From positions 136,340,001 through 136,404,000 of the forward strand of contig CM059431.1 of the NCBI GenBank assembly GCA_030390025.1: a stretch of DNA of 64,000 nt, read 5' to 3'. Position 1 is the stretch's first letter; each line of letters opens with the position of its first letter. This document shows, piece by piece, positions 37,801-56,558 of this stretch. A program made the translations under genes and the position numbers. This DNA comes from Squalus acanthias. Lineage: Eukaryota. Under the pieces are notes generated by a model that was given only the letters and a program-made list of their open reading frames with translations, searched no databases and was not told the origin of the DNA.

Positions 37801-38190
37801 TACTTCACTCAGAGGGTGGTAGGGCCATGGAATATGCTGTCACAAAAAGCTGTAGAAGCTACATCATTAAATAAATTTAAAACAGAAATAGACAGTTTCC
37901 TAGAAGTAAAGGGCATTAAGGGTTACGGGGAGCGGGCAGGAATTTGGACATGAGTCTAGGTTCGGATCAGTCATGGCCCTGTGGGTAGTGGAGCGGGCCC
38001 AGGGACCGTGTAGCCTGATTCTGCTCCTATTTCGTGTGTGCAATTCTGTTAGATGCAGGAGATGGTTCTGTGATAGATAGTAGATTGGAGGTTAGGATCA
38101 GATCAGCCATGATCTTATTGAATGGCGGAGCAGGCTCGAGGGGCCGATTGGCCTACTCCTGCTCCTATTTCTTATGTTCTTATGTTCTTA
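34896..38190 (+). mobile_element. CR1 LINE family B, 5'-truncated, copy 3
   Basis: Same junctions; offset 6196 bp from copy 2; translated ORFs identical to copy 2. Confidence 0.97.
35002..37953 (+). pseudogene. CR1-B ORF2 (APE-RT) with one in-frame stop at 35860-35862
   Basis: ORFs 35002-35862 and 35869-37953 are in one frame. Confidence 0.95.
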
Positions 38191-41100
38191 CTCCTGTAGT
38201 GGTCTGTGATGATTCGATTCCTGTAGTGGTCTGTGATGATTCTACTCCTGTAGTGGTCTGTGATGATTGTACTCCTGTAGTGGTCTGTGATGATTCTACT
38301 ACTGTAGTGGTCTGTGATGATCCTACTCCTGTAGTGGTCTGTGATGATTCTACTCCTGTAGTGGTCTGTGATGACTCTACTCCTGTAGTGGTCTGTGATG
38401 ATTCTACTCCAGTGGTGGTCTGTGAAAATCCTATGACTGTAGTGGTCTGTGATGATTCTACACCTGTAGTGGTCTGTGTTGATTCTACTCCTGTAGTGGT
38501 CTGTGGTGATTCTACTCCTGTAGTGGTCTGTGATGATTCTACTCCTGTAGTGGTCTGTGATGATTCTACTGTAGTGGTCTGTGGTGATTCTACTCCTGTA
38601 GTGGTCTGTGATGATTCTACTCCTGTAGTGGTCTGTGATGATTCTACTGTAGTGGTCTGTGGTGATTCTACTCCTGTAGTGGTCTGTGATGATTCTACTC
38701 CTGTAGTGGTCTGTGATGATTCTACTCCTGTAGTGGTCTGTGATGATTCTACTCCTCTAGTGGTCTGTGATGATTCTACTCCTGTCGTGGTCTGTGATGA
38801 TTCTACTCCTGTAGTGGTCTGTGATGATTCTACTCCTGTAGTGGTCGGTGATGATTCTGTTCCTGTAGTGGTTTGTGATGATTCTACTCCTGTAGTGGTC
38901 TGTGATGATTCTACACCTGTCGTGGTCTGTGATGATTCTACTCCTGCAGTGGTCTGTGATGATTCTACTCCTGTAGTGGTCTGTGATGATTCTACTCCTG
39001 TAGTGGTCTGTGATGATTCTACTCCTGCAGTGGTCTGTGATGATTCTACTCCTGTAGTGGTCTGTGATGATTCTACTCCTGTAGTGGTCTGTGATGATTC
39101 TATTCCTGTAGTGGTCTGTGATGATTCTACTCCTGTAGTGGTCTGTGATGATCTTATTCCTGTCGTGGTCTGTGATGATTCTACTCTTGTAGTGGTCTCT
39201 GATGATTCTACTCCTGTCGTGGTCTGTGATGATCCTACTCCTGTTGTGGTCTGTGATGATTCTACTCCTGTAGTGGTCTGTGATGTTTCTACTCCTGTAG
39301 TGGTCTGTGATGATTCTACTCCTGTAGTGGTTTGTGATGATTCCAGTCCTGTAGTGGTCGGTGATGATCATACTCCTGTAGTGGTCTGTGTTGATTCTAC
39401 TCCTGTAGTGGTCTGTGATGATTCTACTCCTGTACTGGTCTGTGATGATCCTACTCCTGTAGTGGTCTGTGATGATTCTACTCCTGTAGTGGTCTGTGAT
39501 GATTCCAGTCCTGTAGTGGTCGGTGATGATTCTACTCCTGTAGTGGTCTGTGATGATTCTACTCCTGTAGTGATCTGTGATGATTCTACTCCTGTAGTGG
39601 TCTGTGATGATTCTACTCCTGTAGTGGTCTGTGATGATCCTACTCCTGTAGTGGTCTGTGATGATTCTACTCCTGTAGTGGTCTGTGATGATCCTACTCC
39701 TGTAGTGGTTTGTGATGATTCTGCTCCTGTAGTGGTCTGTGATGATCCTACTCCTGTAGTGGTTTGTGATGATTCTACTCCTGTGATGGTCTGTGATGAT
39801 CCTACTCCTGTAGTGGTCTGTGATGATCCTACTCCTGTAGTGATCTGTGATGATTCTACTCCTGTAGTGCTCTGTGATGGTTGTACTCTTGTAGTGGTCT
39901 GTGATGTTTCTACTACTGTAGTGGTCTGTGATGATCCTACTCCTGTAGTGGTCTGTGATGATTCTACTCCTGTAGTGGTCTGTGATGATTCTACTCCTGT
40001 AGTGGTCTGTGATGATTCTACTCCTGTGGTGGTCTGTGATGATCCTATGCCTGTAGTGGTCTGTGATGATTCTACTCCTGCAGTGGTCTGTGATGATTCT
40101 ACTCCTGCAGTGGTCTGTGGTGATTCTACTCCTGTAGTGGTCTGTGGTGTTTCTACTCCTGTCGTGGTCTGTGATGATTCTACTGTAGTAGTCTGTGATG
40201 ATTCTACTCCTGTAGTGGTCTGTGATGATTCTACTCCTGTAGTGGTCTGTGATGATTCTACTCCTGTCGTGGTCTGTGATGATTCTACTCCTGTAGTGAG
40301 TGGTCTGTGATGATTCTACTCCTGTAGTGGTCTGTGATGATTCTGTTCCTGTAGTGGTTTGTGATTATTCTACTCCTGTAGTGGTCTGTGATGATTCTAC
40401 TCCTGTCGTGGTCTGTGATGATTCTACTCCTGCAGTGGTCTGTGATGATTCTACTCCTGCAGTGGTCTGTGACGATTCTACTCCTGTAGTGGTCTGTGAT
40501 GATTCTACTCCTGTAGTGGTCTGTGATGATTCTATTCCTGTAGTGGTCTGTGATGATTCTACTCCTGTAGTGGTCTGTGATGATCCTATTCCTTTAGTGG
40601 TCTGTGATGATTCTACTCCTGTAGTGGTCTCTGATGATGCTACTCCTGTAGTGGTCTGTGATGATACTACTCCTGTTGTGGTCTGTGATGATTCTACTCC
40701 TGTAGTGGTCTGTGATGTTTCTACTCCTGTAGTGGTCTGTGATGATTCTACTCCTGTAGTGGTTTGTGATGATTCCAGTCCTGTAGTGGTCGGTGATGAT
40801 CCTACTCCTGTAGTGGTCTGTGTTGATTCTACTCCTGTAGTGGTCTGTGATGATTCTACTCCTGCACTGGTCTGTGATGATCCTACTCCTGTAGTGGTCT
40901 GTGATGATTCTACTCCTGTAGTGGTCTGTGATGATTCCAGTCCTGTAGTGGTCGGTGATGATTCTACTCCTGTAGTGGTCTGTGATGATTCTACTCCTGT
41001 AGTGGTCTGTGATGATTCTACTCCTGTAGTGGTCTGTGATGATTCTACTCCTGTAGTGGTCTGTGATCATGCTACTCCTTTAGTGGTCTGTGATGATTCT

Positions 41101-41715
41101 ACTCCTGTAGTGGTGTGTGATGATTCTACTCCTGTAGTGGTCTGTGATGATCCTACTCCTGTAGTGGTTTGTGATGATTCTGCTCCTGTAGTGGTCTGTG
41201 ATGATCCTACTCCTGTAGTGGTTTGTGATGATTCTACTCCTGTGATGGTCTGTGATGATCCTACTCCTGTAGTGGTCTGTGATGATCCTACTCCTGTAGT
41301 GGTCTGTGATGATTCTACTCCTGTAGTGGTCTGAGATGATTCTACTCCTGTAGTGGTCTGTGATGATTCTACTCCTGTAGTGGTCTGTGATGATCCTACT
41401 GCTGTAGTGGTCTGTGATGATTCTACTCCTGTAGTGGTCTGTGATGATCCTACTCCTGTAGTGGTTTGTGATGATTCTGCTCCTGTAGTGGTCTGTGATG
41501 ATCCTACTCCTGTAGTGGTTTGTGATGATTCTACTCCTGTGATGGTCTGTGATGATCCTACTCCTGTAGTGGTCTGAGATTATCCTACTCCTGTAGTGGT
41601 CTGTGATGATCCTAGTCCTGTAGTGGTCTGTGATGATCCTACTCCTGTAGTGGTTTGCGATGATTCTACTCCTGCAGACGGTTTGTGATGTTTCGGTTCC
41701 TGTAGTGGTTTGTGA
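38191..41715. repeat. 27-bp satellite, final block (array edge)
   Basis: Tandem 27-mers; the last few units (41570-41715) are the most diverged, followed by an abrupt switch to the 14-bp satellite. Confidence 0.98.
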
Positions 41716-42093
41716 CCTCTTTATTGTCACATCTGGGCTGAGACATCTGGAGTTTGACACCAGGTATTTACCATCTGCAGTGCGACATGTTGCATATGAC
41801 ATATGGAGCTTGACATCTGGAGTGCGACATCAGCAGTGTGACATCATGAGTGTGACATCTGGATTTCGAGATCAGGAGTTTGACATTATGAGTGTGACAT
41901 CTCGAATGGGACATCAGTAGTGTGTCATCAGCAATGTGACATTAGCAGTGTGACATATTTAGTGCGTCATTCGGAGTCTCATATCTGGAGTGTGACATCT
42001 GGAGTCTCATATCTGCACTGTTCCATCTCCAGTGTGCCACCTGGAATTTGACATCTGTATATTCACATTTGGAGTGAGACACCAGGTATATAC
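41716..42093. repeat. Degenerate 14-bp satellite (GGAGTGTGACATCW), segment left of the Gypsy element
   Basis: Recurrent gtgtgacatc(t/a)gga units at a 14-bp period. Confidence 0.9.
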
Positions 42094-42287
42094 TGTCGTA
42101 AGAATGAGCCTTACGCGTGGTGAACTTAAAGTAAGCTTTAATCAACTAAAAAGGTGCTACATACAAAAGAGGCCTTACTCTATGCCTCTCCAGGATTCAA
42201 CTGATCAGCCCAGTATTTATCCTGGACTAATCACAGGAAGTGATGTAATAAAGTTCAAGTCACAGGAAGCTGTATTGTGTTACCACA
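42094..42287 (-). repeat. 3' LTR of the Gypsy element
   Basis: Direct repeat of 46384-46577 with TG/CA ends; preceded on the minus strand by a G-rich PPT at 42288-42303. Confidence 0.97.
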
Positions 42288-42354
42288 TTCTCCCCCCCCC
42301 CCCAAAAGATTAGGAGGCCGGGATGAAGTTCGAGTCACAGGAAGCTGTATTGTG

Positions 42355-45300
42355 TTAGCACATTCTCCCTCCATTTCGTAGCCGCTGGACGAGGGAGAGC
42401 CGCACCCGTTTGGGTTCTCGTAGCGGTAGAGGGCCCCTGGCCCGTTTACCCGCCGCGGGCCGTGGACGAGAGTCCGAGTGATCCAGCCCGATCTGTGAGG
42501 GGTCAGGACGATCCTGACTGTGTACTGGTGCCCGAACGGGTGTCGGGCAGGGCTGTGGCAGATCCGTTTCCGAGCATATGGTACGGGGTGGATCGTGGCT
42601 GCGCGTGCGAGCCCCGACGGGCTCATAGTCAGTCTGCCCCAGGTCGGCACGCTGGAGTGAGGTACCAGCCGGCGTCAGATCCAGATCGTGATGAGAAGCA
42701 CCTGGCGAGCCCAGAGATGTGCCTGGTACAATATCATCCCCTGGTGTCCCTCTATGTTTCGGCGGGCAGGGAGCCAGATCCCGCAATGACACGGTAGATT
42801 CCCGACCGTCAGGATACCGAATATAGGCATAGGTACGGTTGACGTCAGTGAGCTCAACCTCATCTACCAGGGGGTCATTCTTAGACGCCCGAACATATCT
42901 TCGGAGTAGTACTGGTCCCGGTGCAGTCAGCCACGACGGGAGAGATATCCCATAGGATGAGCGACGCTGAAATCGGAAGAACCGTTCATGAGGTGTCGTA
43001 TTTGTGGTGGTCGAAAGGAGGGACCGTGTGGAGTGTAATGCGTCTGGAAGTACTGCTTCCCATTGCTGGTTGGGTAGGCCCCGAGATCTCAAAGCCAGAC
43101 GTACCGCATTCCAGATGATAGCGTTAAAACGCTCGACTTGCCCATTCCCGACCGGATGATAAGGCGTCGTTCTGCTGGCAGCAATACCCCGTTCCGAGAG
43201 ATAGACCTTGAGTTCTCCTGACATAAAAGAAGGGCCCCGATCCGAATGAACATAGGATGCCATGCCACAGAAAGCAAATACCTGCTCAAGGCAGCTGATA
43301 ACCGTGGTCGTCAGCATATTGGGGCAGGGAAAGGCAAACAGAAAACGGGAATACTCATCGACCATGGTCAATAGATAAGTGTTGCGAGTTGAAGAGGGCA
43401 ACGGCCCCTTAAAATCGATGCTAAGCCGTTGCATTGGCTGGGTCGCATGTATGAGTAGACCACCCGAGGGGCGGAAAAACGGAGGTTTCAATTCCGCACA
43501 GACTCTGCAGTCCGAGCACATCTTCCTTACATCCCCGGTAGAGAATGGGAGATTTCGGGACCGCACGAAGTGTAGCATGCGAGTAACGCCCGGATGACAC
43601 AACCCATCATGGATGTCTACGAGCGTAGAGGGTGCCATGGCGGAGCAGAATGATCGTGTGAGGGTATCCGGAGCCACATTCTCCTTGCCAGGTCGATAGT
43701 GGATGGTGTAACCAAAAGAGGCCAATTCCAGCCGCCAAAGCTGGATTTTATTATTTTTAATTTTGGTCCGTTTTCGATTATCGAGCATGAAGGCGACCGA
43801 TCGCTGGTCCGTGATTAAGGTAAAGTGCTGGCGAGCTAGGAGATGAGTCCACTTCCGTACTGCCTCTATGATGGCTGTAGCTTCTTTCTCGACTGGAGGA
43901 TAATGTAGCTCAGCCCCTTGAAAAGTCCTGGACAAAAATGCCACCGGACGACCTTCCTGATTCAGAGTGGCCGAGATCGCCACCTCCGAGGCATCACACT
44001 CAACAACAAAAGGAAGACTCTCATCGATGGAGTGAAGAGCCGCTTTCTCCAACTGTTTTTTCAGGAGGTTAAAGGCTGCAACAGCCATTGTGTCTAGTGG
44101 GAATGTGCTGGCCTTCAGTAGAGGTTGGATTCGGTCCGAGAAGTTAGGAATCCATTTAGCATAGTATGCAAACAGGCCGAGGGCCCGGCGCAAGGAGGCC
44201 GGATTCTTAGGTGGCGGGAGTTCTTGGAGTGGGCGAAGCCTTTCAGGGTCAGGTTTAATTATGCCATTGCCCACACAATAGCCAAGGATGTTGATGGTTG
44301 GTTGTGACTCAATGGATTTAGCCGCATTTAATGTCAAATTACGGTGCTGGAGTGCATCCCAAAATCGTTGGAGATTGGCGTCATGTTCCCGCTGATTGCG
44401 ACCTGCGACAGTAATATTGTCCAGATAAGGAAACGTATCCTTTAAGTCTTCCTGTTTGACCAGGTCATCCATTGCTCGCTGGAAGACAGCCACTCCATTA
44501 GTGACCCCAAAGCGGAGGCGACGAAATTGATACAGCCGTCCATTGGCTTCAAAGGCCGTATACTGCTTGTCTGAGACCTTCAAGGGTACCTGATGATAGG
44601 CACTTTTCAGATCGTATGTTGAGAACACCGTGTACTCAGCCAGTTTATTAACCATATCATCGATGCGCGGCAATGGGTATGCGTCCAAGTCCGTATATTG
44701 ATTGATGGTCTGTGAATAGTCAATGCACAGCCGTTTCTTGTGAGGTTGTAGAGGGTTCTTAACAATAACGACCTGGGCGCGCCATGGCGACGAACAAGGC
44801 TCGATGATATCCTCTGCTAAAAGCCAAGAAATCTCAGCCGCAATAAAAGACTGGTCTTCCTGACTGAAACGTCGTGACTTTGTTATAATCGGTTTGCATC
44901 GAGGAGGGATACTGGTAAACAGTGAGGGTTCATCCAGTGAAGCTGCTGACAATGCACAGAACGGTAATCGAGGTCGTATATTAGAAATAGTGAGTTCAGG
45001 TTTGGATCCGCCGAACTCAATGGTGAGCTTCTTATGCTGCTTTTGAAAATCTAGCCCTAAGATAAGATCACTACATAAGTCCTTGAGCACCGAAAGCCGG
45101 GTGGAGGGATACCTGTGACCATTAAGTGTTATTTCAACCATACAAAAGCCAGAAATTCTGGTATTAAGTGATGACTGAGCCATCGCAATTGCCTGGTCCG
45201 ATGGGAAAAAATGTAGCTTTAACTCTGCAACAATCTGTTCCCTAATGAAACTATCAGTGCTACCTGAGTCAATTAAGGCATCTAAAGTATGTCCATTAAT

Positions 45301-46305
45301 TGATGCTTTTGTAGCTGCATGGAATAGGTTCTGAGGACAAGCAGCTGTAATTGGTGTCGTTGCACAAAGAGTGGCTGAAACTCTAGGTGTGTTTCTTCGA
45401 GAGAAAACCCGAGAGGAAGCACGATAGATTTTAGCCGGAACATCTTGATAGGCCCTTACCGGGGCAGTTCGGTAGGACTTAGCTTGATAAGCCCTCGTAG
45501 AGGCTCTTGATAGGCAAACCTTTGCAAAATGACCCTTTTTGTTGCAATGACTGCAAAACGCATTGCGAGCAGGGCAGAATTTCCGAGGGTGAAACTCATC
45601 ACCACAAAAGAAGCATTTCTTAGATTGCCAAGAGGCTGCCACAGTGGGGTCATCATCCTCTTCATCAGTGAAGTCATCAGATTGATCGTCAGGGATAAAG
45701 TCCTCCCTAATAGAGTTCACCTGTGGCCTCTTAAATTGCCTGACTGTAGTTAAGGCAGCAGACCGAGGTCTGGGCACTGTATAAAGGTCTGCATTTCTTT
45801 TTGCCAGATCTAGAGAGCAAGCCATGTCATAAGCTCTCTGAAGCTCAAGTGTCTTACTTTCCAGTAGACGCTGGCGTATAAATGGGGAGGCAAGACCGCA
45901 GATGAAAGCATCACAGATCATTTCTTCACGGTACAGCTCAGCTGAGGCCGCCTGAAAGTTACAGTCCATACTAAGTCTGCGAAGCTCTTGGAGGAATTTA
46001 TCAATGGATTCCTCCGGCCCTTGTTGGGCTGTAGCTAGTAGATGTCTGGCATAGACCTCATTCGGTGTCTTAGTATATAGTCTTTTAAGCGTCCGAATTG
46101 CCTCCTCGTAACTGCCCCATTCCTCGACATACTGAAATACATTCGGGGTGACACAGTTGATGAGTATCCGCAATTTTGAGTCATCATCAGCCTTGCAATA
46201 TTCGAGAAAATTGTCAAACGTGCGATACCAGTGTTTCCACACCTTACCGGCTGCTGGGGTGTTTGGGTCCAAGTCAAGACGCGATGGTTTAAGGATGTTT
46301 TCCAT
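42355..46305 (-). CDS. Gag-Pol polyprotein, 1316 aa, uninterrupted
   Basis: Gag with two CX2CX4HX4C knuckles (CFFCGDEFHPRKFC, CSHCNKKGHFAKVC); protease LIDSGS; RT RLCIDY...DLKSAYHQ...YLDN; RNase H VECDAS; integrase HHCC plus IDFKG/SDRG/ERFN. Confidence 0.97.
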   Translation of the reverse strand: MENILKPSRLDLDPNTPAAGKVWKHWYRTFDNFLEYCKADDDSKLRILINCVTPNVFQYVEEWGSYEEAIRTLKRLYTKTPNEVYARHLLATAQQGPEESIDKFLQELRRLSMDCNFQAASAELYREEMICDAFICGLASPFIRQRLLESKTLELQRAYDMACSLDLAKRNADLYTVPRPRSAALTTVRQFKRPQVNSIREDFIPDDQSDDFTDEEDDDPTVAASWQSKKCFFCGDEFHPRKFCPARNAFCSHCNKKGHFAKVCLSRASTRAYQAKSYRTAPVRAYQDVPAKIYRASSRVFSRRNTPRVSATLCATTPITAACPQNLFHAATKASINGHTLDALIDSGSTDSFIREQIVAELKLHFFPSDQAIAMAQSSLNTRISGFCMVEITLNGHRYPSTRLSVLKDLCSDLILGLDFQKQHKKLTIEFGGSKPELTISNIRPRLPFCALSAASLDEPSLFTSIPPRCKPIITKSRRFSQEDQSFIAAEISWLLAEDIIEPCSSPWRAQVVIVKNPLQPHKKRLCIDYSQTINQYTDLDAYPLPRIDDMVNKLAEYTVFSTYDLKSAYHQVPLKVSDKQYTAFEANGRLYQFRRLRFGVTNGVAVFQRAMDDLVKQEDLKDTFPYLDNITVAGRNQREHDANLQRFWDALQHRNLTLNAAKSIESQPTINILGYCVGNGIIKPDPERLRPLQELPPPKNPASLRRALGLFAYYAKWIPNFSDRIQPLLKASTFPLDTMAVAAFNLLKKQLEKAALHSIDESLPFVVECDASEVAISATLNQEGRPVAFLSRTFQGAELHYPPVEKEATAIIEAVRKWTHLLARQHFTLITDQRSVAFMLDNRKRTKIKNNKIQLWRLELASFGYTIHYRPGKENVAPDTLTRSFCSAMAPSTLVDIHDGLCHPGVTRMLHFVRSRNLPFSTGDVRKMCSDCRVCAELKPPFFRPSGGLLIHATQPMQRLSIDFKGPLPSSTRNTYLLTMVDEYSRFLFAFPCPNMLTTTVISCLEQVFAFCGMASYVHSDRGPSFMSGELKVYLSERGIAASRTTPYHPVGNGQVERFNAIIWNAVRLALRSRGLPNQQWEAVLPDALHSTRSLLSTTTNTTPHERFFRFQRRSSYGISLPSWLTAPGPVLLRRYVRASKNDPLVDEVELTDVNRTYAYIRYPDGRESTVSLRDLAPCPPKHRGTPGDDIVPGTSLGSPGASHHDLDLTPAGTSLQRADLGQTDYEPVGARTRSHDPPRTICSETDLPQPCPTPVRAPVHSQDRPDPSQIGLDHSDSRPRPAAGKRARGPLPLREPKRVRLSLVQRLRNGGRMC

Positions 46306-46383
46306 GATGGGTGATTCCCTGGATCCTTAGTTCCGAGTTTGTCCAAAAAGTTTGAGTGTGAAGTTTTTCAAAGTTGATTAAAT

Positions 46384-46577
46384 TGTCGTAAGAATGAGCC
46401 TTACGCGTGGTGAACTTAAAGTAAGCTTTAATCAACTAAAAAGGTGCTACATACAAAAGAGGTCTTACTCTATGCCTCTCCAGGATTCAACTGATCAGCC
46501 CAGTATTTATCCTGGACTAATCACAGGAAGTGATGTAATAAAGTTCAAGTCACAGGAAGCTGTATTGTGTTACCACA
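46384..46577 (-). repeat. 5' LTR of the Gypsy element
   Basis: Direct repeat of 42094-42287; the difference seen is ggtcttactc versus ggccttactc. Confidence 0.97.
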
Positions 46578-49500
46578 TATACCATGTGGAGTGCAACATG
46601 TTGCCTATGACATCTGTAGTGTTATATCAGGTGTGCTACATCAGAAATATGACATCAGGACTGTGCCATCTGGAGCGTGCCAACTGGAGTGTGAAATCAG
46701 GAGGGTACATCACGAGTTTGACATCAGTAGTTTGACATCTGGAGTGTGATATCTGGAGTGCTACATCATTCATGTGACATTATGAGTGTGACATCTCGAG
46801 TGTGACATCAGTCGTGTGACATCAGCAGTTTGACATCTGGAGTGTGACATCAGGAGTGTGACATTATGAGAGAGTGATTTCTGGAGTGTGACATCTGCAG
46901 TGTTCCATCTGGTTTCGGAGATCTGGTGTGTGATATCAATATTGTGCCATCTGGCATGTGACCTCTGGATTGTGATATCAGGAGTGTTACATCAGTTGAG
47001 TGACTTCTGTAGTGTGACATCAGCATTGTGACATCAGCAGTGTGACATCAAGTGTGTGACATCTGCAGTGTGCCATCTGGTTTGTGAGATCTGGAGTGTA
47101 ACATGAACAGTGTACCATCTGGAGTGAGACCTCTGAATTGTGACATTTAGAGTGTGATATCAGGTGTGTGAGATCTGGAGTGTGATATCAGGAGTGTGAC
47201 ATCAGGAGTGTGACGTATGCTTGTGTTATCTGGAGTGTGACATCTGGAGTGTGCCATCAGGAGTCTGAGATCAGGAGGGTGACATCTCCAGTGTGACACC
47301 AGTAATGTGCCGTCAGCAGTGTGACATCTGGAGTGTGACATCAGGAATGTGACATTAGGTGTATAACATCGGGAGTGTGACATCTGAAGTCTTCCAACTG
47401 CAGTGTACCATCTGGAACGTGACATCTGTATTTTCACATCTGGAGTGACACCAGGTATGTACGATCTGCCGTGCGATATGTTGCGTATGACATCTGTAGT
47501 GAGATATCAGGTGTGCGACATCATGAGTGTGACATCTGGAGTGTGACATCTGGATTGTGAGATCAGGAGTGTGACATTATGAGTGTGACATCTCGAGTGG
47601 GACATCAGTAGTGTGACATCAGCAGGGTGACATCAGCAGTGTGACATATGGAGTGTGTCATCAGGCGTGTCACATCTGGAGTGTGACATCTGGAGTCTGA
47701 CACCTGCAGTGTTCCATCTCCAGTGTACCATCTAGAATGCGACATCTGTATTTTCACATCTGGAATGAGGTTCCAGCTATGTACCATCTGGACTGTAAGA
47801 TGTTGTGTATGACATCTGTAGTGTGATATCAGGTGTGAGACATCAGGAGTATGACATCAGGAGTGTGCCATCTGGAGCGTGCCATCTGGAGGGTGAAATC
47901 AGGAGGGTACATCACTTGTGTGACATCAGCAGTGTAACATCAACAGTGTGACATCTGGAGTGTGACAATAACAGTGTGACATCAGAAGTGTGACTTTTGG
48001 AGTGTGACATCTGGTTATTGCGATCATGAATGTGACATCAACAGTGTGCCATCTGGAGTGTGACATCTGGACTGTGACATCTAGAGTGTGACATCATGTG
48101 TGTGAGACCTGGAATGTGACATCAGCAGTATGACATCTGGTGTGTGATATCAGGAGTTTGACATCAGGAGTGTGACATATGCCTGTGACATCTGGAGTGC
48201 GACTTCAGGAGTGTGACATGTACAGTGTGCCATCTGGAGTGTAACATCTGGTTTGTGAAATCAGGAGTGTGACATCAGGAGTGTGACATCAGGAGTTTGA
48301 CATCAGGAGTGTGACTTCTGGAGTGTGACATCTGCAGTATTCCATCTGCAGTGTTCCATCTGTTTATGAGATCTGGAGTGTGATATCAACATTGTGCAAT
48401 CTGGCATGTGACCTCTGGATAGTGGCATCAGGAGTGTGACATCAGTAGTGTGACTTCTGGAGTGTGACGTCAGCAGTGTGACATCAAGCGTGTGACATCA
48501 GGAGTGTGATTTCTGCAGTGTGACATCTGGAGTGTGACATCTGGTTTGTGAGATCTGGAGTGTAACATCATAGTGTGCCTTCTGGATTGTGACCTCTGAA
48601 TTGTGACATCTAGAGTATGACATTAGGTGTGTGAGATCTGGAGTGTGACATAAGGAATGTGCCATCTGGAGTGTGCCATCTGGGGTATGACTTCTGGAGT
48701 GTGAAATCTCGAGTGTGACATCAGGGTGTGCGAGATCAGGAGGGTGACTTCAGGAGTCTGACATCAGGAGTTTGTATTCTGGAGTGTGACATCTGGAATG
48801 CGACATCAGCAGTGTGACATCATGAGTGTGACCTCTGGAGTGTGACATCTGCAGTGTTCCATCTGCAGTGTTCCATCTGGTTTATGAGATCTTGAGTGTG
48901 ATATCAATATTGTGCAATCTGGCATGTGACCTCTGGATTGTGGCATCAGGAGTGTGACATCAGGAGTGTGACTTCTGGAAAGTGGCATCTGCAGTGTGCC
49001 ATCTGGTTATTGAGATCATGAGTGTGACATCAACAGTATGCCTTCTGGAGTGTGACCTCCGCAATGTGACATCTAGAGTGTGACATCATGTGTGTGAAAT
49101 CTGGAGTGTGACATCAGGTGTGTGACATCTGGAGTGTGATATCAGGAGTGTGACATCAGGAGTGTGACGTAAGCTTGTGCCATCTGGAGTGTGACAACAG
49201 GACTGTGATTCTACAGTGTGCCATCTGGAGGGTGACATCTGGTTTGTCAAATCAGGAGGATACATCACGAGTGTGACATCAGGAGTTTAACATCTGGAGT
49301 GTGACATCTGGAGAGCGAAAACATTAGTGTGACATCTGCAGTGTGACATCTGGAGTATGACATCAGGAGTGTGACATCAGGAGTGTGACTACTGGAGTGT
49401 GACATCTGCAGTATTCCATCTGCAGTTTTCCATCTGGTTTATGAGATCTGGTGTGTGATATCAACATTGTGCAATCTGCCATGTGACCTCTGGAGTGTGA

Positions 49501-52500
49501 CATCAGAAGTGTGACATCAGGAGAGTGACATCAGGAGTGTGACATCTGGAGTCTGACACCTACAGTGTTCCATCTCCAGTGTACCATCTAGAATGCGACA
49601 TCTGTATTGTCACATCTGGAGTGAGGCTCCAGGTATGTACCATCTGGACTGTAAGATGTTGCATATGACATCTGTATTGTGATATCAGGTGTGCGACATC
49701 AGGAGTATGACGTCAGAACGGTGCCATCTGGACCGTGCCAACTGGAGTGTGAAATCAGGAGGGTACATCACTTGTGTGACATCATTAGTGTGACATCAGC
49801 AATGTGACACCTGGAGGTGACATCAACAGTGTGATATCAGGAGTGTGACTTCTGGAGTGTGACATCTGCAGTGTTCCATCTGCAGTGTGTCATCTGGTTA
49901 TTGAGATCATGAATGTGACATCAACAGTGTGCCTTCTGGAGTGTGACCTCCGGACTGTGACATCTAGAGTGTGACATCATGTGCGTGAGATCTGGAATGT
50001 GACATCAGAAGTGTGACATCTGGAGTGTGACATATGCTTGTGCCATCTGGAGTGCGACATCAGGAGTGTGACATGTACAGTGTGCCATCTGGAGTGTAAC
50101 ATCTGGTTTGTGAAATCAGGAGTGTGACATCAGGAGTGTGACATCAGGAGTTTGACATCAGGAGTGTGACTTCTGGAGTGTGACATCTGGTTAGTGAGAT
50201 CATGAATGTGACATCAACAGTGTGCCTTCTGGAGTGTGACTTCTGGACTGTGACATCTAGCGTGTGACATCATGGGTGTGAGATCTGGAATGTGACATCA
50301 GCAGTGTGACATCTGGAGTGTTACATATGCTTGTGCCATCTGGAGTGCGACATCAGGAGTGTGACATGTACAGTGTGCCATCTGCAGTGTAACATCTGGT
50401 TTGTGAAATCAGGAGTGTGACATAAGGAGTGAGACATCAGGAGTTTGACATCAGGAGTGTGACATCTGCAGTGTGACATCTGGTTAATGAGATCATGAGT
50501 CTGACATCAGCAGTGTGCCTTCTGGAGTGTGACCTCGTTAACTGTGACTTCTAGAGTGTGACATCATGGGAGTGAGAACTGGAGTGTGACATCAGGAGTG
50601 TGACGTATGCTTGTGCCATCTGGAGTGTGACATCAGGAGTGTGACATCTACAGTCTGCCATCTGGAGTGTGACATCTGGTTTGTGAAATCAGGAGGGTAC
50701 ATCATGAGTGTGACATCAGGAGTGTGACATCTGGAGTGTGACATCAGGAGTGTGACATCTACAGTCTGCCATCTAGAGTGTAACATCTGGTTTGTGAAAT
50801 CAGGAGGGTACATCAGGAGTTTTGAATCTGGAGTGTGACATCTGGAGTGCGACATCATTAGTGTGACATTTTGAGTGTGACATCTCGAGTGCGACATCAG
50901 TAGTGTGATATCTGCAGTGTGACATCTGGAGTATGACATCAGGAGTGTGACATCTGGAGTGTGACTTCTGGAGTGTGACATCTGCAGTTTTCCATCTGGT
51001 TTATGAGATCTGGAGTATGATATCAAAATTGTGCAATCTGGCATGTGAACTCTGGATTGTGGCATCAGCAGTGTGACATCAAGAGTGTGACTTCTGGAGT
51101 GTGACATCAGGAGTGTGCTTTCTGGATGTGTGCCATTTGGTTTGTGAAATCAGGAGTGTGACATCTGGAGTATGAAATCAGGAGTGTGACATCAGTAGTG
51201 TGACATCTGCAGTATTCCAGCTGCAGTGTTCCATCTGGTTTATGAGATCTGGAGTGTGATATCAACATTTTGCAATCTGGCATGTGACCTCTGGATTGGG
51301 GCAGCAGGAGTGTGACATCAGGATTTTGACTTCTGGAGTGTGACGTCAGCAGTGTGACATCAGGAGTGTGACATCTGCAGTGTGACATCTGCAGTGTGCC
51401 ATCTGCAGTGTGACATCTGGAGTGTAACATCAATAGTGTGCCTTCTGGATTGTGACCTCTGAATTGTGTCATCTAGAGTGTGACATCAGGAGTGTGAGAT
51501 CTGGAGTGTGACATCAGGAATGTACCATCTGGAGTGTGCCATCTGGGTTATGACTTCTGGAGTGTGAAATCTCGAGTGTGACATCAGGGTGTGCGAGATC
51601 AGGAGGGTGACTTCAGCAGTCTGACATCAGGAGTTTGTATTCTGGAGTGTGACATCTGGAAGGCGATATCAGCAGTGTGACATCTGGAGTGTGTCATCTG
51701 CAGTGTTCCATCTGCAGTGTGCCACCTGGTTTATGAGATCTGGAGTGTGATATCAATATTGTGCAATCTGGCATGTGACTCTGGAGTGTGACGTCAGCAG
51801 AGTGACATCAAGCGTGTGACATCAGGAGTGTGACTTCTGCAGTGTGACATCTGCAGTGTGCCATCTGGTTTGTGAGATCTGGAGTGTAACATCAACAGTA
51901 TGCCTTCTGGATTGTGACCTCTGAATTGTGACATCTAGAGTATGACATCAGGTGTGTGAGATCTGGAGTGTGACATCAGGAATGTGCCATCTGGAGTGTG
52001 CCATCTGGGTTATGACTTCTGGAGTGTGAAATCTCGAGTGTGACATCAGGGTGTGCGAGATCAGGAGGGTGACTTCAGGAGTCTGACATCAGGAGTTTGT
52101 ATTCTGGTGTGTGACAACTGGAATGCGACAACAGCAGTGTGACATCATGAGTGTGACATCTGGACTGAGACATCTGCAGTGTTCCATCTGCAGTGTGCCA
52201 TCTGGTTATTGAGATCATGAGTGTGACAACAACAGTGTGCCATCAGGAGTGTGACCTCTTGAATGTGACATCTAGAGTGTGACATCAGGTGTGTGACATC
52301 AGGAGTGTGACATCTGGAATGTGATATCAGGAGTGTGACATCAGGTGTGTGACATATGCATGTGCCATCTTGAGTGTAACATCAGGAGTGTGATATCTAC
52401 AGTGTGCCATCTGGAGTGTGACATCTGGAGTGTGACATCAGGAGTTTGACATCTGGTGTATGACTTATGGAGTGTGACACATGGATTTTGAGATCCGGGG

Positions 52501-54469
52501 TGTGACCTCATTAGTGGGACATGTTACGTGTGACATCAGGATTGAGAATTCATGATTGTGATATCTGGATTTTGATTTCAGGTGTGTGACATCAGGAGTA
52601 TACCATCTGGAGTTTGACCTCTGAAATGTGACATCGGAGTGTGGCTTCTGGAGTGTGACATCAGGAGTCTGCCATCTGGAGTGTGACATCTGCAATGTGG
52701 CATCTGGAGTGTGACATTAGGAGTCTGACAGCTGGAGTGTGAGGTCTGGAGTATGACATCAGCAGTGTGACATCTGGAGAGTGACATCTCGAGTGTGACA
52801 TCAGTAGTGTGACATCAGCAGTGTGACATTAGGAGTGTGACATCCTGAGTGTGACATCTGGAGTGGAAAATCTGGAGTGTGACACCAGGTATGTACCATT
52901 TGGAGTGCGACATGTTGCGTATGACATCTGTCGCGTGATATCAGGTGTGCGACATCAGGAGTGTGCCGTGTGGAGCATGCCATCTGGAGTGTGAAATCTG
53001 GAGTTCGCCATCTGGAGTGTGAGATCTGGATTGCGACAGCAGGATTGCGCCATCTGGATTGTGACATCAGCAGTGTGATATCAGGAGTGTGACATCAGGA
53101 GTGTGTCATCAGGATTGCGACATCAGCACTGTGAGATCTGGAGTGTGAAATTAGCAGCGTACCATCTGGAATGTGACATCTGGATTGTCACATATGGAGT
53201 GTGACATAAGCAGTTTGACATCTGGAGTGCGACATCTGGAGTGTTTCATCAGGAGTGCGACATCTGGAGTGTGAGATCAGAATTGTGACATCTGGAGTGT
53301 GACATCAGGAGTGCTACATCTCGAGTGTGAGATCAGATTTGTACCATCTGGAGTGTGACATAAGCAGTTTGACATCTGGAGTGCGACATCTGGAGTGTTT
53401 CATCAGGAGTGCGACATCTGGAGTGTGAGATCAGAATTGTGACATCTGGAGTGTGACATCAGGAGTGCTACATCTCGAGTGTGAGATCAGATTTGTACCA
53501 TCTGGAGTGTGACATCTGGAGTGTGACAACAGGAATGTGCCATCTGGAGTGTGATATCAGCAGTGCAACATCAGCAGTATGACATCAGGTGTGTGACATC
53601 TGGAATGTGAAATCTGGAGTCTGACATCAGGAGCCGGCCAGCTGGAGTGTGCTATCCGGAGTGTGACATCAGCAGTGAGACATCTGGACTGTGACATCGC
53701 CAGTGTGACATCAGTAGTGTGATGTCAGCATTGTGACATCTGGAGTGTGACATCAGGAATGTGACATTAGGAGTGTGACATCTGGAGTGTGTCATCTGAA
53801 GTGTTCCATCTGCAGTGTACCATCTGGAATGTGACATCTGTTTTGTCACATCTGGAGTGAGGCATCTGGAGTGTGACACCAGGTATGTACCATCTGCAGT
53901 GCGACATGCTGCGTCTGACATCTGTAGCGTGATATCAGGTGTGCGACATCAGGAGTGTGCCATCTGGAGCGTGCCATCTAGAGTGTGACTTCTGGAGTTT
54001 GAAACCTGGAGTGTGACATCAGGAGTGCGAGATCAGGAGGGCGACATCAGGAGTGTGACGTCAGGTGTTTGACATCTGGAGTGTGAAACCTGGATTGCGA
54101 GATCAGGTGTGTGACATTATGAGTGTGACATCTCGAGTGGTACATCAGTAGTGTGACATCAGCAGTGTGATATCAGGAGTGTGTCATCAGGTGTGCGACA
54201 TCAGGAGTGTGCCATCTGGAGCGTGCCATCCAGAGTGTGACTTCTGGAGTTTGAAACCTGGAGTGTGACATCAGGAGTGCGAGATCAGGAGGGCGACATC
54301 AGGAGTGTGACGTCAGGTGTTTGACATCTGGAGTGTGAAACCTGGATTGCGAGATCAGGTGTGTGACATTATGAGTGTGACATCTCGAGTGGTACATCAG
54401 TAGTGTGACATTAGCAGTGTGATATCAGGAGTGTGTCATCAGGAGTGTGACATCAGGAGTGTGACATAA
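46578..54469. repeat. Degenerate 14-bp satellite, main block, with internal multimer duplications
   Basis: 14-bp period (the minus-strand translation repeats every 14 aa = 3 units); near-exact internal duplications with periods 154 and 252 bp. Confidence 0.93.
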
Positions 54470-55296
54470 GGGACGCGATCTTGCCAGCCCTGGGGAGGCG
54501 AATATGGAGGCGGGACTGCCGGTTAAATGGCAGAATTTGGGAACGGTGCCCAACCCGCCCCCAACCTGCCTCCGTGCCATCTTGCCAGGAGGTGGGTAGT
54601 CGTCCCGCGCCGGGTCCCATCTCCTTGGAGGCGAGAAGGGGATTACAGCCACTTAACTGCCTTTTAACAGGTAGTTAACAGGCAGATAAGAGGATTATCC
54701 CCATTTTACACACAAAAGTGCGGGCTTCCCGAAGGCTGCAAACCCCGCCAAGGTCACCGAGGCGAGTAGTGGGTCTGCGGGGTGAAAAAGTGCACTGTGA
54801 AGGTAAGTGATGCGTGCAAGTGTGGAGAGTTGGGTATGTGAAGTCAGTGGAAAAGTTTACTTACCTTTGTTTCTTCATGCAGGCTTCAAGATTTGGGTAT
54901 GCAGAGAATCTCGCACCTGCGTGGCAGAGATAACAGATGGCTGTTGCATTCTCTAATGCAACAACCATTTAATTTCTGCAAAAGAAAGAGGTTTGATGCA
55001 TCTTGAATTCAAGATCTCATCAAACTACAGGGAATGTCAATGTTTGAAAGCTTCACAGAGCTGTCAAACGATGACAATTCATCTGTCAAAATTTTTTGAC
55101 AGATGCAACGTCATACGCTGACGTTTTCTGTCACCGGCTTTCCCTTAATTGGCAATGCTAAACCCGCTGGGCGGGTTTAACAAGGTCAATCAAGGGAAAA
55201 TAGCGTGGATTGGACACAAATCGATGGAGGCGGGACTTCGCCCCGACAAGCAGCAGTCCCGCCTCCAACGTGCCCCCATTGGCAAAATCAGCCCCC
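54470..55296. mobile_element. Non-autonomous DNA-transposon-like insert (~830 bp), possibly PIF/Harbinger type
   Basis: Non-satellite sequence interrupting the 14-bp array. Imperfect termini GGGACGCGATCTTGCCA and (rc) GGGGGCTGATTTTGCCA; perfect 13-bp subterminal inverted repeat TGGAGGCGGGACT (54505-54517 and 55255-55267). No clean TSD. Confidence 0.6.
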
Positions 55297-56558
55297 TGGA
55301 GTCTGACATCTGCAGTGTTCCATCTCCAGTATACCATCTGGAATGTGACATCTGTATTGTCAAATCTGGAGAGAGACATCTGGAGTGTGATGCCAGATAT
55401 GTACCATCTGAAGTGCAACATGTTGCGTACGACATCTGTAGTGTGATATCAGGTGTGCAACATCAGGAGTATGATATCAGGGGTGTGCCATCTGGCGTGT
55501 GAGATCAGGAGGGTGACATCAGGAGTGTGACATCAGGAGTTTGACATCTGGAGTGTGACATCTGGAGTGCGACATCAGCAGTGTGCCATCTGGAGTGTGA
55601 CATCAGCAGTGTGCCATCTGGAGTGTGACCTCTAGATTGTGACATCTAGTGTGTGACATCAGGTGTGTCAGATCTGGAGTGTGACATCAGGAATGTGTCA
55701 TCTGGAGTTTGTCATCTGGAGTGTGACTTCTGGAGTGTGAAATCTCGAGTGTGACATCAAGAGTGTGAGATCAGGAGGGTGTCATCTGGAGTGTGACATC
55801 AGAAGTGCGACATCAGCAGTGTGACATAACGAGTGTGACATCTGGTGTGTGACAGCTGGACTGGGAGATCAGGAGTGTGACACCTCGAGTGTGATATCAG
55901 TAGTGTGACATTATCAGTGTGACATCTGGAGTGTGACATCAGGAGTGTGACTTCTGGAGTGTGACATCTGCAGTGTTCCATCTGCAGTGTGCCATCTGGT
56001 TTGTGAGATTTGGAGTGTGACATCAACGTTGTGCCATCTGGAATGTGACATCTGGATTGTGACATTTAGAGTGTGACATCTGGTGTGTGAGATCTGGAGT
56101 GTGGCACCAGGAATGTGACTTGATGGGTGTGACATCTAGTGTGTGATATCAAGAGTGTGACATCAGGAGTGCGACATATGCAGTGTGCCATCTGGAGTGT
56201 GACATCAGGAGTGTGACGTCTACAGTTTGCCATCTGGAGTGTGACATCTGGTTTGTGACATCAGGGCTGTGACATCTGGAGTGTGACATCAGGAGTTTGA
56301 CATCAGGTGTATGACTTATGGAGTGTGATACATGGAGTGTGATATCAGGAGTGTGATCTCATTAGTGTGACCTGTTGCGTGTCACACCAGGATGGAGAAT
56401 TCATGATTTTGACATCTGGAATTTGACATCAGGACCGTGACATCAGGGCTGTACCATCTGGAGTGTGACATCTGGAATGTGACATCGGAGTGTGACTTCT
56501 GGTGTGTGACATCAGGAGTGTGACATGTTGTGGATGACATCTGGACGGGTGACATCTG
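55297..56558. repeat. Degenerate 14-bp satellite, right segment
   Basis: The same units resume after the insert and end near ...gggtgacatctg. Confidence 0.9.

Follow-up and report, generated by a model that had tools for sequence, protein, structure and literature searches.

Covarying LTR and primer-binding-site arms point to self-primed reverse transcription in a chromodomain-less animal Ty3/gypsy lineage

The duplex by which the retrotransposon Tf1 primes its own reverse transcription is 11 nt long. According to the accessible portions of the published accounts (PMC4600332, PMC5341516, bioRxiv 10.1101/2022.12.06.519325), a 5' segment of the Tf1 mRNA pairs with a primer-binding site (PBS) just past the 5' LTR, with flanking duplexes, and self-priming is also inferred there for the Tf1/sushi elements, Tj1 and Tosmo; titles among the references that they cite name the RNase H domain of Tf1 as the nuclease. 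The Tf1/sushi elements are chromoviruses and carry a chromodomain, as described in the available part of bioRxiv 10.1101/2022.12.06.519325. Within Ty3/gypsy, self-priming is described in the accessible text of PMC6317226 for the Tf1/sushi group and the plant Tcn1 clade, with a prediction for the copia element TAR, and the portions available of this source, PMC4600332 and bioRxiv 10.1101/2022.12.06.519325 treat the trait among Ty3/gypsy elements as a hallmark of the Tf1/sushi chromoviruses. This group (Tf1/Tf2 of Schizosaccharomyces pombe, Tj1, Tosmo, Tcry, sushi-ichi, Maggy and Skippy, together with the plant Tcn1 clade) formed our comparison set. A second described group, the Mag lineage (Mag, SURL/C-clade, Jule, Steamer and Steamer-like elements), comprises elements of 4-5 kb with LTRs of about 140-300 bp, a 5-bp target-site duplication (TSD) and usually a single gag-pol ORF (PMC8905726 for Steamer, and a table of Culex elements in PMC3286476), typically with two CCHC arrays (PMC2577118). 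For Mag and Steamer, the sections available of PMC8905726 and PMC3286476 give a tRNA-Leu or tRNA-Ser PBS starting with TGG, that of Steamer being TGGTGTCAGAAG (PMC8905726). We found no report of self-priming in Mag, SURL or any other metazoan gypsy element in the full-text literature searched, a scope outside which Repbase Reports and most subscription journals lie.

The window analyzed here, a stretch of 64,000 nt from Squalus acanthias (GenBank assembly GCA_030390025.1, contig CM059431.1, positions 136,340,001 to 136,404,000), contains a young, intact Ty3/gypsy retrotransposon on its minus strand (Table 1). It has the TG...CA LTRs, TSD, polypurine tract (PPT) and PR-RT-RNase H-IN order of Ty3/gypsy elements (Metaviridae). 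Read on the minus strand, the LTRs start with TGTGG and finish with CGACA, and BLASTN of 46301-46800 against the window aligned 46384-46578 with 42094-42288 over 195 bases at 99.49% identity. Pfam matches on the gag-pol protein comprise an aspartyl protease, RVT_1, RT_RNaseH, rve and a weak Integrase_H2C2. The 39-bp internal duplication near the PPT is bypassed in contigs of three public sequencing runs (X1, X5 and X10), which join 42325 straight to 42365, showing that other copies are without it.

Table 1. Features of the window element (window positions; PR, protease; RT, reverse transcriptase; RH, RNase H; IN, integrase)
Feature	Position	Strand	Basis or remark
Complete LTR retrotransposon, Ty3/gypsy domain order, 4,484 bp	42094..46577	-	LTR pair, TSD, single ORF, Pfam PR-RT-RH-IN
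5' LTR, 194 bp, TG...CA	46384..46577	-	Sequence reading, BLASTN
3' LTR, 194 bp	42094..42287	-	1 difference from 5' LTR (42173 G vs 46463 A)
Target-site duplication GTATA, 5 bp	upstream 46578..46582, downstream 42089..42093	-	Sequence reading
LTR arm AGTTGATTAAA, proposed self-primer	46427..46437	-	3' LTR copy of arm at 42137-42147
Poly(A)-signal-like hexamer ATTAAA within LTR arm	46432-46427	-	
Hairpin 1 (GCUUA-CUU-UAAGU), stacked on arm duplex	46414..46426	-	Folding; hairpin at this position in several relatives
Hairpin 2 (CGUAAG(G)...(U)CUUACG), end of U5, adjoining PBS	46387..46405	-	Sequence and folding
Single spacer A between LTR end (CA) and PBS	46383	-	
Putative primer-binding site TTTAATCAACT	46372..46382	-	Perfect complement of LTR arm
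gag-pol ORF, 1,316 aa (P0001)	42355..46305	-	ORF list, Pfam
Two CCHC knuckles of Gag (CX2CX4HX4C)	45514-45615	-	Residues 231-244 and 251-264
RT catalytic box YLDN	44416-44427	-	Residues 627-630
gag-pol order: Gag, protease, RT, RNase H, integrase, SH3-like C-terminal domain, unannotated tail			
Polypurine tract G12AGAA, abutting 3' LTR	42288..42303	-	
39-bp internal duplication: purine tract and first U3 bases	42326..42364	-	Just upstream of true PPT

A preliminary description made from the letters of the window had proposed that this element lacks a tRNA-type PBS and instead carries a site complementary to its own LTR, and this layout was confirmed in every detail. On the minus strand, the LTR is followed by one A (46383) and then by TTTAATCAACT (46382-46372), which is not a TGG-type start and is the exact reverse complement of AGTTGATTAAA at 46437-46427, an arm lying within the LTR in the context TTTTTAGTTG. 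Of the 4,086 11-mers in the interior of the element, a single one is matched by a perfect reverse complement within the LTR, namely the one at offset 1 after the LTR, and the rest of the window contributes 1 of 118,560. When the LTR was shuffled, 6 of 20,000 sequences matched an 11-mer at offsets 0-3, and in a broader control with shuffles of the 260-nt upstream region, 2 of 200 attained a stem length of 11 bp somewhere in the zone. The RNA from 46437 to 46366 folds with a minimum free energy (MFE) of -15.4 kcal/mol (z = -3.2; none of 200 shuffles folds as well), and in this structure the arms are paired around a 44-nt loop bearing two hairpins. One hairpin (46426-46414) begins immediately after the LTR arm, and the hairpin in U5, noted in the preliminary description as CGTAAG/CTTACG and found at 46405-46400 and 46392-46387, stops 4 nt before the PBS.

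To assess how widely this layout is shared, we surveyed relatives of the element in protein and metagenome collections. Of 8,000 candidates from a search with residues 480-1180 of the gag-pol protein, 1,803 passed E <= 0.001. The best 120 of these homologues are 56-88% identical, and the ones named among the 120 listed come from shrimp, whipworm, sea louse, colonial tunicate, mussel and catshark. Scanning metagenomes with an 18-sequence alignment gave 547 confirmed stretches, from which 80 loci were kept. LTR pairs were sought in 67 of the 80 loci, with 13 short contigs left out, and 24 had matches, one of which (L044) is a contig-end repeat in the coding region rather than a pair of LTRs. For the 27 loci that could be matched to the N-terminus, we took the 110 nt that precede the ORF and looked there for the longest perfect stem whose partner lies 25-110 nt further upstream. 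In 23 of them a perfect stem of 9-19 nt occupies the LTR-internal and post-LTR positions; in 20 of these loci none of 200 shuffles did as well, and in the remaining three 1, 5 and 6 of 200 did. The four misses comprise two contigs cut at the LTR (L039, where the full arm pair is visible in the wrapped contig tail, and L051, where the arm is cut by the contig end), one locus whose arm is intact in the 3' LTR although the 5' LTR is mutated (L097), and one 5'-truncated copy (L047).

For comparison between families, we assembled 17 distinct ones, namely the window element and 16 metagenome relatives with 43-70% protein identity. All 17 have the layout in common, while the sequences that make it up differ. 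TAAA closes the LTR arm in 14 of the 17, with (A/G)C(C/T) after it; the LTRs of the relatives end in CA, the loop between the arms measures 28-79 nt, and 15 of the 17 families have a CA + A + TTT(A/T) junction. One more distant relative, a metagenome contig at 45% identity (L083), has a 14-nt arm/PBS pair in which the arm ends otherwise (...GATGAA), the spacer measures 2 nt and the loop 79 nt, indicating that the layout reaches beyond the families with a TAAA-ending arm.

Compensatory change between the two arms across related families, which had been put forward as a check on the proposal, turned out to be strong. Over the first 11 positions, arms paired with their own PBS form a mean of 10.65 Watson-Crick pairs, compared with 7.63 over 272 cross-family pairings, and at positions 5-13 own arms mostly pair at 9 of 9, the cross-family mean being 4.92 and the maximum 8. 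Position 7 is G-C in eight families, A-T in six, T-A in two and C-G in one; between loci L036 and L037, a G to T change in the LTR arm is matched by C to A in the PBS. On a MAFFT alignment of the 17 families, 95.5% of 221 cells are paired and 9 of 13 pairs have changed on both sides, giving a covariation score of 0.540 vs 0.156 for shuffles; none of 500 shuffles reached the paired fraction, the covariation score or the number of both-side cells, and slid controls paired in 23-50% of cells. RNAalifold, run on 15 families with no structure supplied, recovered the same arm helix with 16 pairs, 12 of them with compensatory changes, and unconstrained MFE folding paired the arms in 16 of the 17 families. 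A hairpin directly after the 5' arm appears in about half of the folds (e.g. those of the window element and of L031, L032, L035, L039, L059 and L074). The arm-PBS pairing is thus real and under selection. Covariation proves the pairing, not priming: the stem might also mask a poly(A) signal, aid packaging or control translation.

We consider Tf1-like self-priming the best explanation of this layout and a quite probable one, in agreement with the preliminary description: the PBS tracks the LTR of its own family, a TGG-type site is missing from all 17 families, and the PBS starts one base after the CA of the LTR, where a minus-strand primer must anneal. On this evidence, which comes from sequence comparison, a large lineage of animal Ty3/gypsy elements appears to use part of its own transcript, and not a tRNA, as the primer for minus-strand DNA. 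Transcription would start in the LTR at 46437 or a few bases upstream, and the first 11 nt of R, AGUUGAUUAAA (at least 13 nt in most relatives), would fold back over the 44-nt loop with its two hairpins and anneal to the PBS beginning one base past the LTR. A cut in the RNA after ...UAAA, made presumably by the element's own RNase H by analogy with Tf1, would leave a 3'-OH from which the reverse transcriptase could copy the spacer A, U5 and the rest of R before transferring to the 3' R. Of the two copies of the arm, the one in the 5' LTR would be used. The NNUAAA hexamer at the end of the primer arm probably has a second function as poly(A) signal, which would make R very short; it would act in the 3' LTR, with the 5' copy masked by the PBS duplex and by its closeness to the cap. 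A search of the 3.7-Gb Squalus acanthias genome with the LTR and PBS gave at least 956 candidate copies, and each of the 40 scored candidates showed 100% identity across 206 nt. The family is thus an abundant and very young one, and an element carrying this site has transposed recently.

The alternative that survives best, although we regard it as unlikely, is that the arm-PBS duplex serves some other purpose as a conserved RNA structure (in masking the poly(A) signal, in packaging or dimerization, or in gag translation) and that the element uses another primer. Structure and priming look the same to covariation alone, and the sequence of the arm is suggestive: it ends NNTAAA in the same 14 of 17 families, its 3' end being AATAAA or ATTAAA in nine and a one-base variant in most others, T/G-rich stretches lie upstream of it, some with TGTA, and in some relatives (L074) the duplex extends to the ATG. 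In HIV-1, the 5' poly(A) signal is masked by a hairpin. Scanning the 80 metagenome loci for poly(A) tails in relatives yielded only genomic A-runs. Against this alternative, the 3' arm sits exactly at the PBS position, and no alternative primer site is found: no TGG-type site occurs in the 17 families, and only 1-21 nt separate the duplex from the ATG in relatives. Masking is also compatible with priming, and is more likely an added function than a replacement.

Slightly less probable again is a primer that is self-derived but comes from elsewhere, the candidates being the arm copy of the 3' LTR, a second RNA packaged with the first, and a short trans-acting RNA derived from the LTR. The arm is present in both LTRs, which the sequence cannot separate as sources, and the extent of the pairing has some bearing here. 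A and G occupy arm positions 11 and 10 in almost every family, inside a T-N-A-G-Y word that resembles an initiator, and in the window element the duplex stops exactly at the A, 46437. In 16 of the 17 families, pairing reaches position 13, and in many 14-19, at least 2 nt upstream of this conserved initiator-like A. If the A were +1, positions 12 and beyond would be absent from the RNA, which suggests that the start in most relatives is probably a few bases further upstream; either transcription would begin upstream of the A equivalent to 46437, or the initiator reading would be wrong. Pairing past the presumed +1 would be easily explained by an arm lying inside the RNA, the situation in the 3' R. 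The loop is short (28-79 nt), its hairpins are conserved and the local MFE is good, which instead fits an intramolecular fold, and such a fold is established for Tf1 in the accessible part of bioRxiv 10.1101/2022.12.06.519325.

Other signals around the transcript start were less regular. The ATAAATA word of the preliminary description was found at 46510-46504, 73 nt upstream of 46437; acting as a TATA box, it would put the 5' end of the RNA about 40 nt ahead of the arm. TATA-like words are not conserved among relatives, occurring within 130 nt in only 5 of 14 families and at varying distances. We found 15 public sequencing runs with the element, all as Logan contigs, and compared four (X1, X5, X9 and X10), of which X9 is the only one recorded as RNA. 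The four are DNA-like, with LTR depth in X1, X5 and X10 about 2-5 times that of the interior and contig breaks at the LTR end (46384), and X9 covers 8 of 30 bins, in pol only. Neither a transcript start nor a poly(A) site is visible in these runs. A loose contig end at 46437 in X5 was considered as a start site and rejected, since it belongs to a diverged LTR variant.

Priming at the PBS by a host tRNA, a tRNA half or another host small RNA, with the LTR match incidental, is in our view very improbable. Half-tRNA priming does exist in copia lineages, as the available text of PMC6317226 describes, and a Steamer-like element of mussel has been annotated with a tRNA-Asn(AAC) PBS (PMC11046912). 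We speculate that this annotation may be the same self-arm architecture read differently. One family in our set has GCTGTTAA in its arm, which we take to resemble the Asn anticodon loop. The sample of host tRNAs is also tiny: an Rfam tRNA search gave 63 matches, and the 30 loci used yielded Lys(UUU) and Cys(GCA) genes only, with seven distinct sequences, among which the best complementarity to the PBS is 5 nt. The tRNA-Lys(UUU) genes are arranged in tandem, repeating about every 1.78 kb (host contigs C2208:413928-426494, C29:13254729-13265435, C1484 and C1516). Against a host tRNA, the PBS differs among families and always matches the family's own LTR, a pattern that a host tRNA cannot explain. 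In addition, the complementary stretch ends 1-5 nt before the ATG in several relatives, leaving no room there for another PBS. Chance complementarity, for which the AT-rich PBS (8 of 11 positions) and the two shuffles of the upstream region that formed an 11-bp stem might be cited, is practically negligible and refuted by covariation across families, the match being unique in the element, at the exact PBS position and kept with compensatory change in all 17 families.

With self-priming as the preferred reading, we asked to which lineage the element belongs. The protein features given in the preliminary description (a double zinc-knuckle Gag within residues 231-264, a YLDN box at 627-630 and the lack of a chromodomain) all held. 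Neither Chromo (PF00385) nor SH3_Tf2-1 (PF24626) gave a Pfam match on the gag-pol protein, neither is present in the precomputed Pfam annotation of the 120 listed homologues, and the last 217 aa matched no Pfam family at E <= 10. An AF2 model of residues 1090-1200 forms a five-strand barrel, with pLDDT above 90 over residues ~1125-1180. Foldseek returned only weak matches for this C-terminal module (best E 7.8e-3), to SH3, retroviral integrase C-terminal and Tudor/PWWP-type barrels, and none of the 50 entries shown is a chromodomain; the module is thus predicted to fold as an SH3-like barrel and not as a chromodomain. The best match to a solved structure is Ty3 RT-RNase H (193.6 bits). The last residue of the RT box is N in 14 and D in 3 of 17 aligned clade members, and no paper in the literature searched has 'YLDN' together with 'reverse transcriptase'; the YLDN family has nonetheless been active recently, as the identical copies indicate.

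The host genome also provides a contrast with conventional priming. Searches with Integrase_H2C2 and SH3_Tf2-1 found one tRNA-type gypsy family (L141) together with elements resembling endogenous retroviruses with two RNase H domains. L141 (C18:34731700-34739400) is an abundant gypsy with a 1,335-aa gag-pol ORF, 252-bp LTRs, a YLDD box and two CCHC knuckles; it has a TGG-type site after its 5' LTR and is 25% identical to the window gag-pol. The other loci (L142-L146) are endogenous retrovirus-like elements, with a retrovirus-like pol that has both an RT_RNaseH 'tether' and a second RNase_H domain, and some of them have an SH3_Tf2-1 or MLV-IN C-terminal domain. A Chromo search of the same genome found 16 short, host-like matches, suggesting that chromoviruses are rare or absent in it. 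Viral contigs scanned with a mixed alignment gave 69 loci, nearly all of them caulimovirus-sized genomes of 7-8 kb matching only RT-RNase H.

The clade is probably a self-priming lineage outside Tf1/sushi, as had been proposed, a placement that fits the lack of a chromodomain, the two CCHC arrays and the protostome and tunicate relatives and is made by features, not by a labelled tree. In the same way, 'Mag-like' is a description of its architecture and not a tested membership. The fuller proposition, that a pan-metazoan, non-chromoviral (Mag-like) Ty3/gypsy lineage, mostly with a YxDN reverse transcriptase, self-primes and uses one motif as transcript start, poly(A) signal and primer, is one that we advance tentatively, as somewhat short of an even chance.

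In its genomic setting, the element is inserted in a 14-bp satellite array (41742-41999 and 46608-56558; at least 650 copies), which is adjoined by a 27-bp satellite (38189-41715; ~131 copies, 91% matches). Near-identical copies of the element occur in the 15 runs (X1-X15), which come from five organisms, with 0.46-0.76 of sampled words present in 14 of the 15 and 0.07 in X9. Relatives at 56-70% protein identity span several animal phyla. This pattern would fit horizontal transfer, as reported for Steamer-like elements.

If self-priming is borne out, these families would form a second self-priming lineage, one without a chromodomain, and the trait would not be tied to chromoviruses; it would either have arisen independently of Tf1/sushi or be an old gypsy trait lost elsewhere, which bears on the idea of self-primed ancestral LTR elements raised in the accessible part of the discussion in PMC3601003. 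The relatives known by name come from shark, tunicate, mussel, shrimp, copepod and nematode, and the host genome has no fewer than 956 near-identical copies. Annotation pipelines that look for tRNA-type PBSs will mislabel or reject such elements, and host defences aimed at PBSs of this type, e.g. 3'-tRNA fragments, would miss them. Start-site choice, 3'-end formation and replication competence would be coupled within about 13 nt, and the overlap of the primer with a poly(A)-like motif is a testable link of transcript ends with replication competence.

Compared with the Mag lineage, the window element is similar in its length of 4,484 bp, its 194-bp LTRs, 5-bp TSD, single ORF and two CCHC arrays, and the Mag lineage, too, is widespread in aquatic animals, but unlike Mag and Steamer, none of the 17 families of its clade has a TGG-type tRNA-Leu or tRNA-Ser PBS. 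Its PBS complements its own LTR and not a tRNA, as in the plant Ty1/copia element TAR, for which self-priming is predicted in the available text of PMC6317226, although TAR belongs to a different superfamily and to different hosts and is not an animal gypsy. The Tf1/sushi elements, as far as the accessible parts of their accounts describe them, share more: the tRNA PBS is lacking, a segment at or near the start of R complements a PBS just after the CA of the 5' LTR, and U5 between the arms is structured, and the window element resembles Tf1 itself in its single gag-pol ORF and its 11-bp duplex. The 'pretzel' RNA of this group has three duplexes, a central one between primer and PBS and two that join PBS-adjacent with LTR sequence; in the window element the central duplex is present, and no duplex was found with sequence downstream of the PBS; the alignment of the spacer is too poor for a consensus. 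Unlike Tf1/sushi elements, the window element is without a chromodomain and a Tf2-type SH3 domain, has two CCHC arrays and a YLDN reverse transcriptase, bears a poly(A)-signal-like hexamer in its primer arm, and has a loop with local hairpins. The relatives also differ from chromoviruses in their presence in protostomes and a tunicate, where chromoviruses were undescribed as of PMC2577118. Judged from these sequence features, membership of Tf1/sushi is not supported, and similarity to Tf1/sushi in mechanism is.
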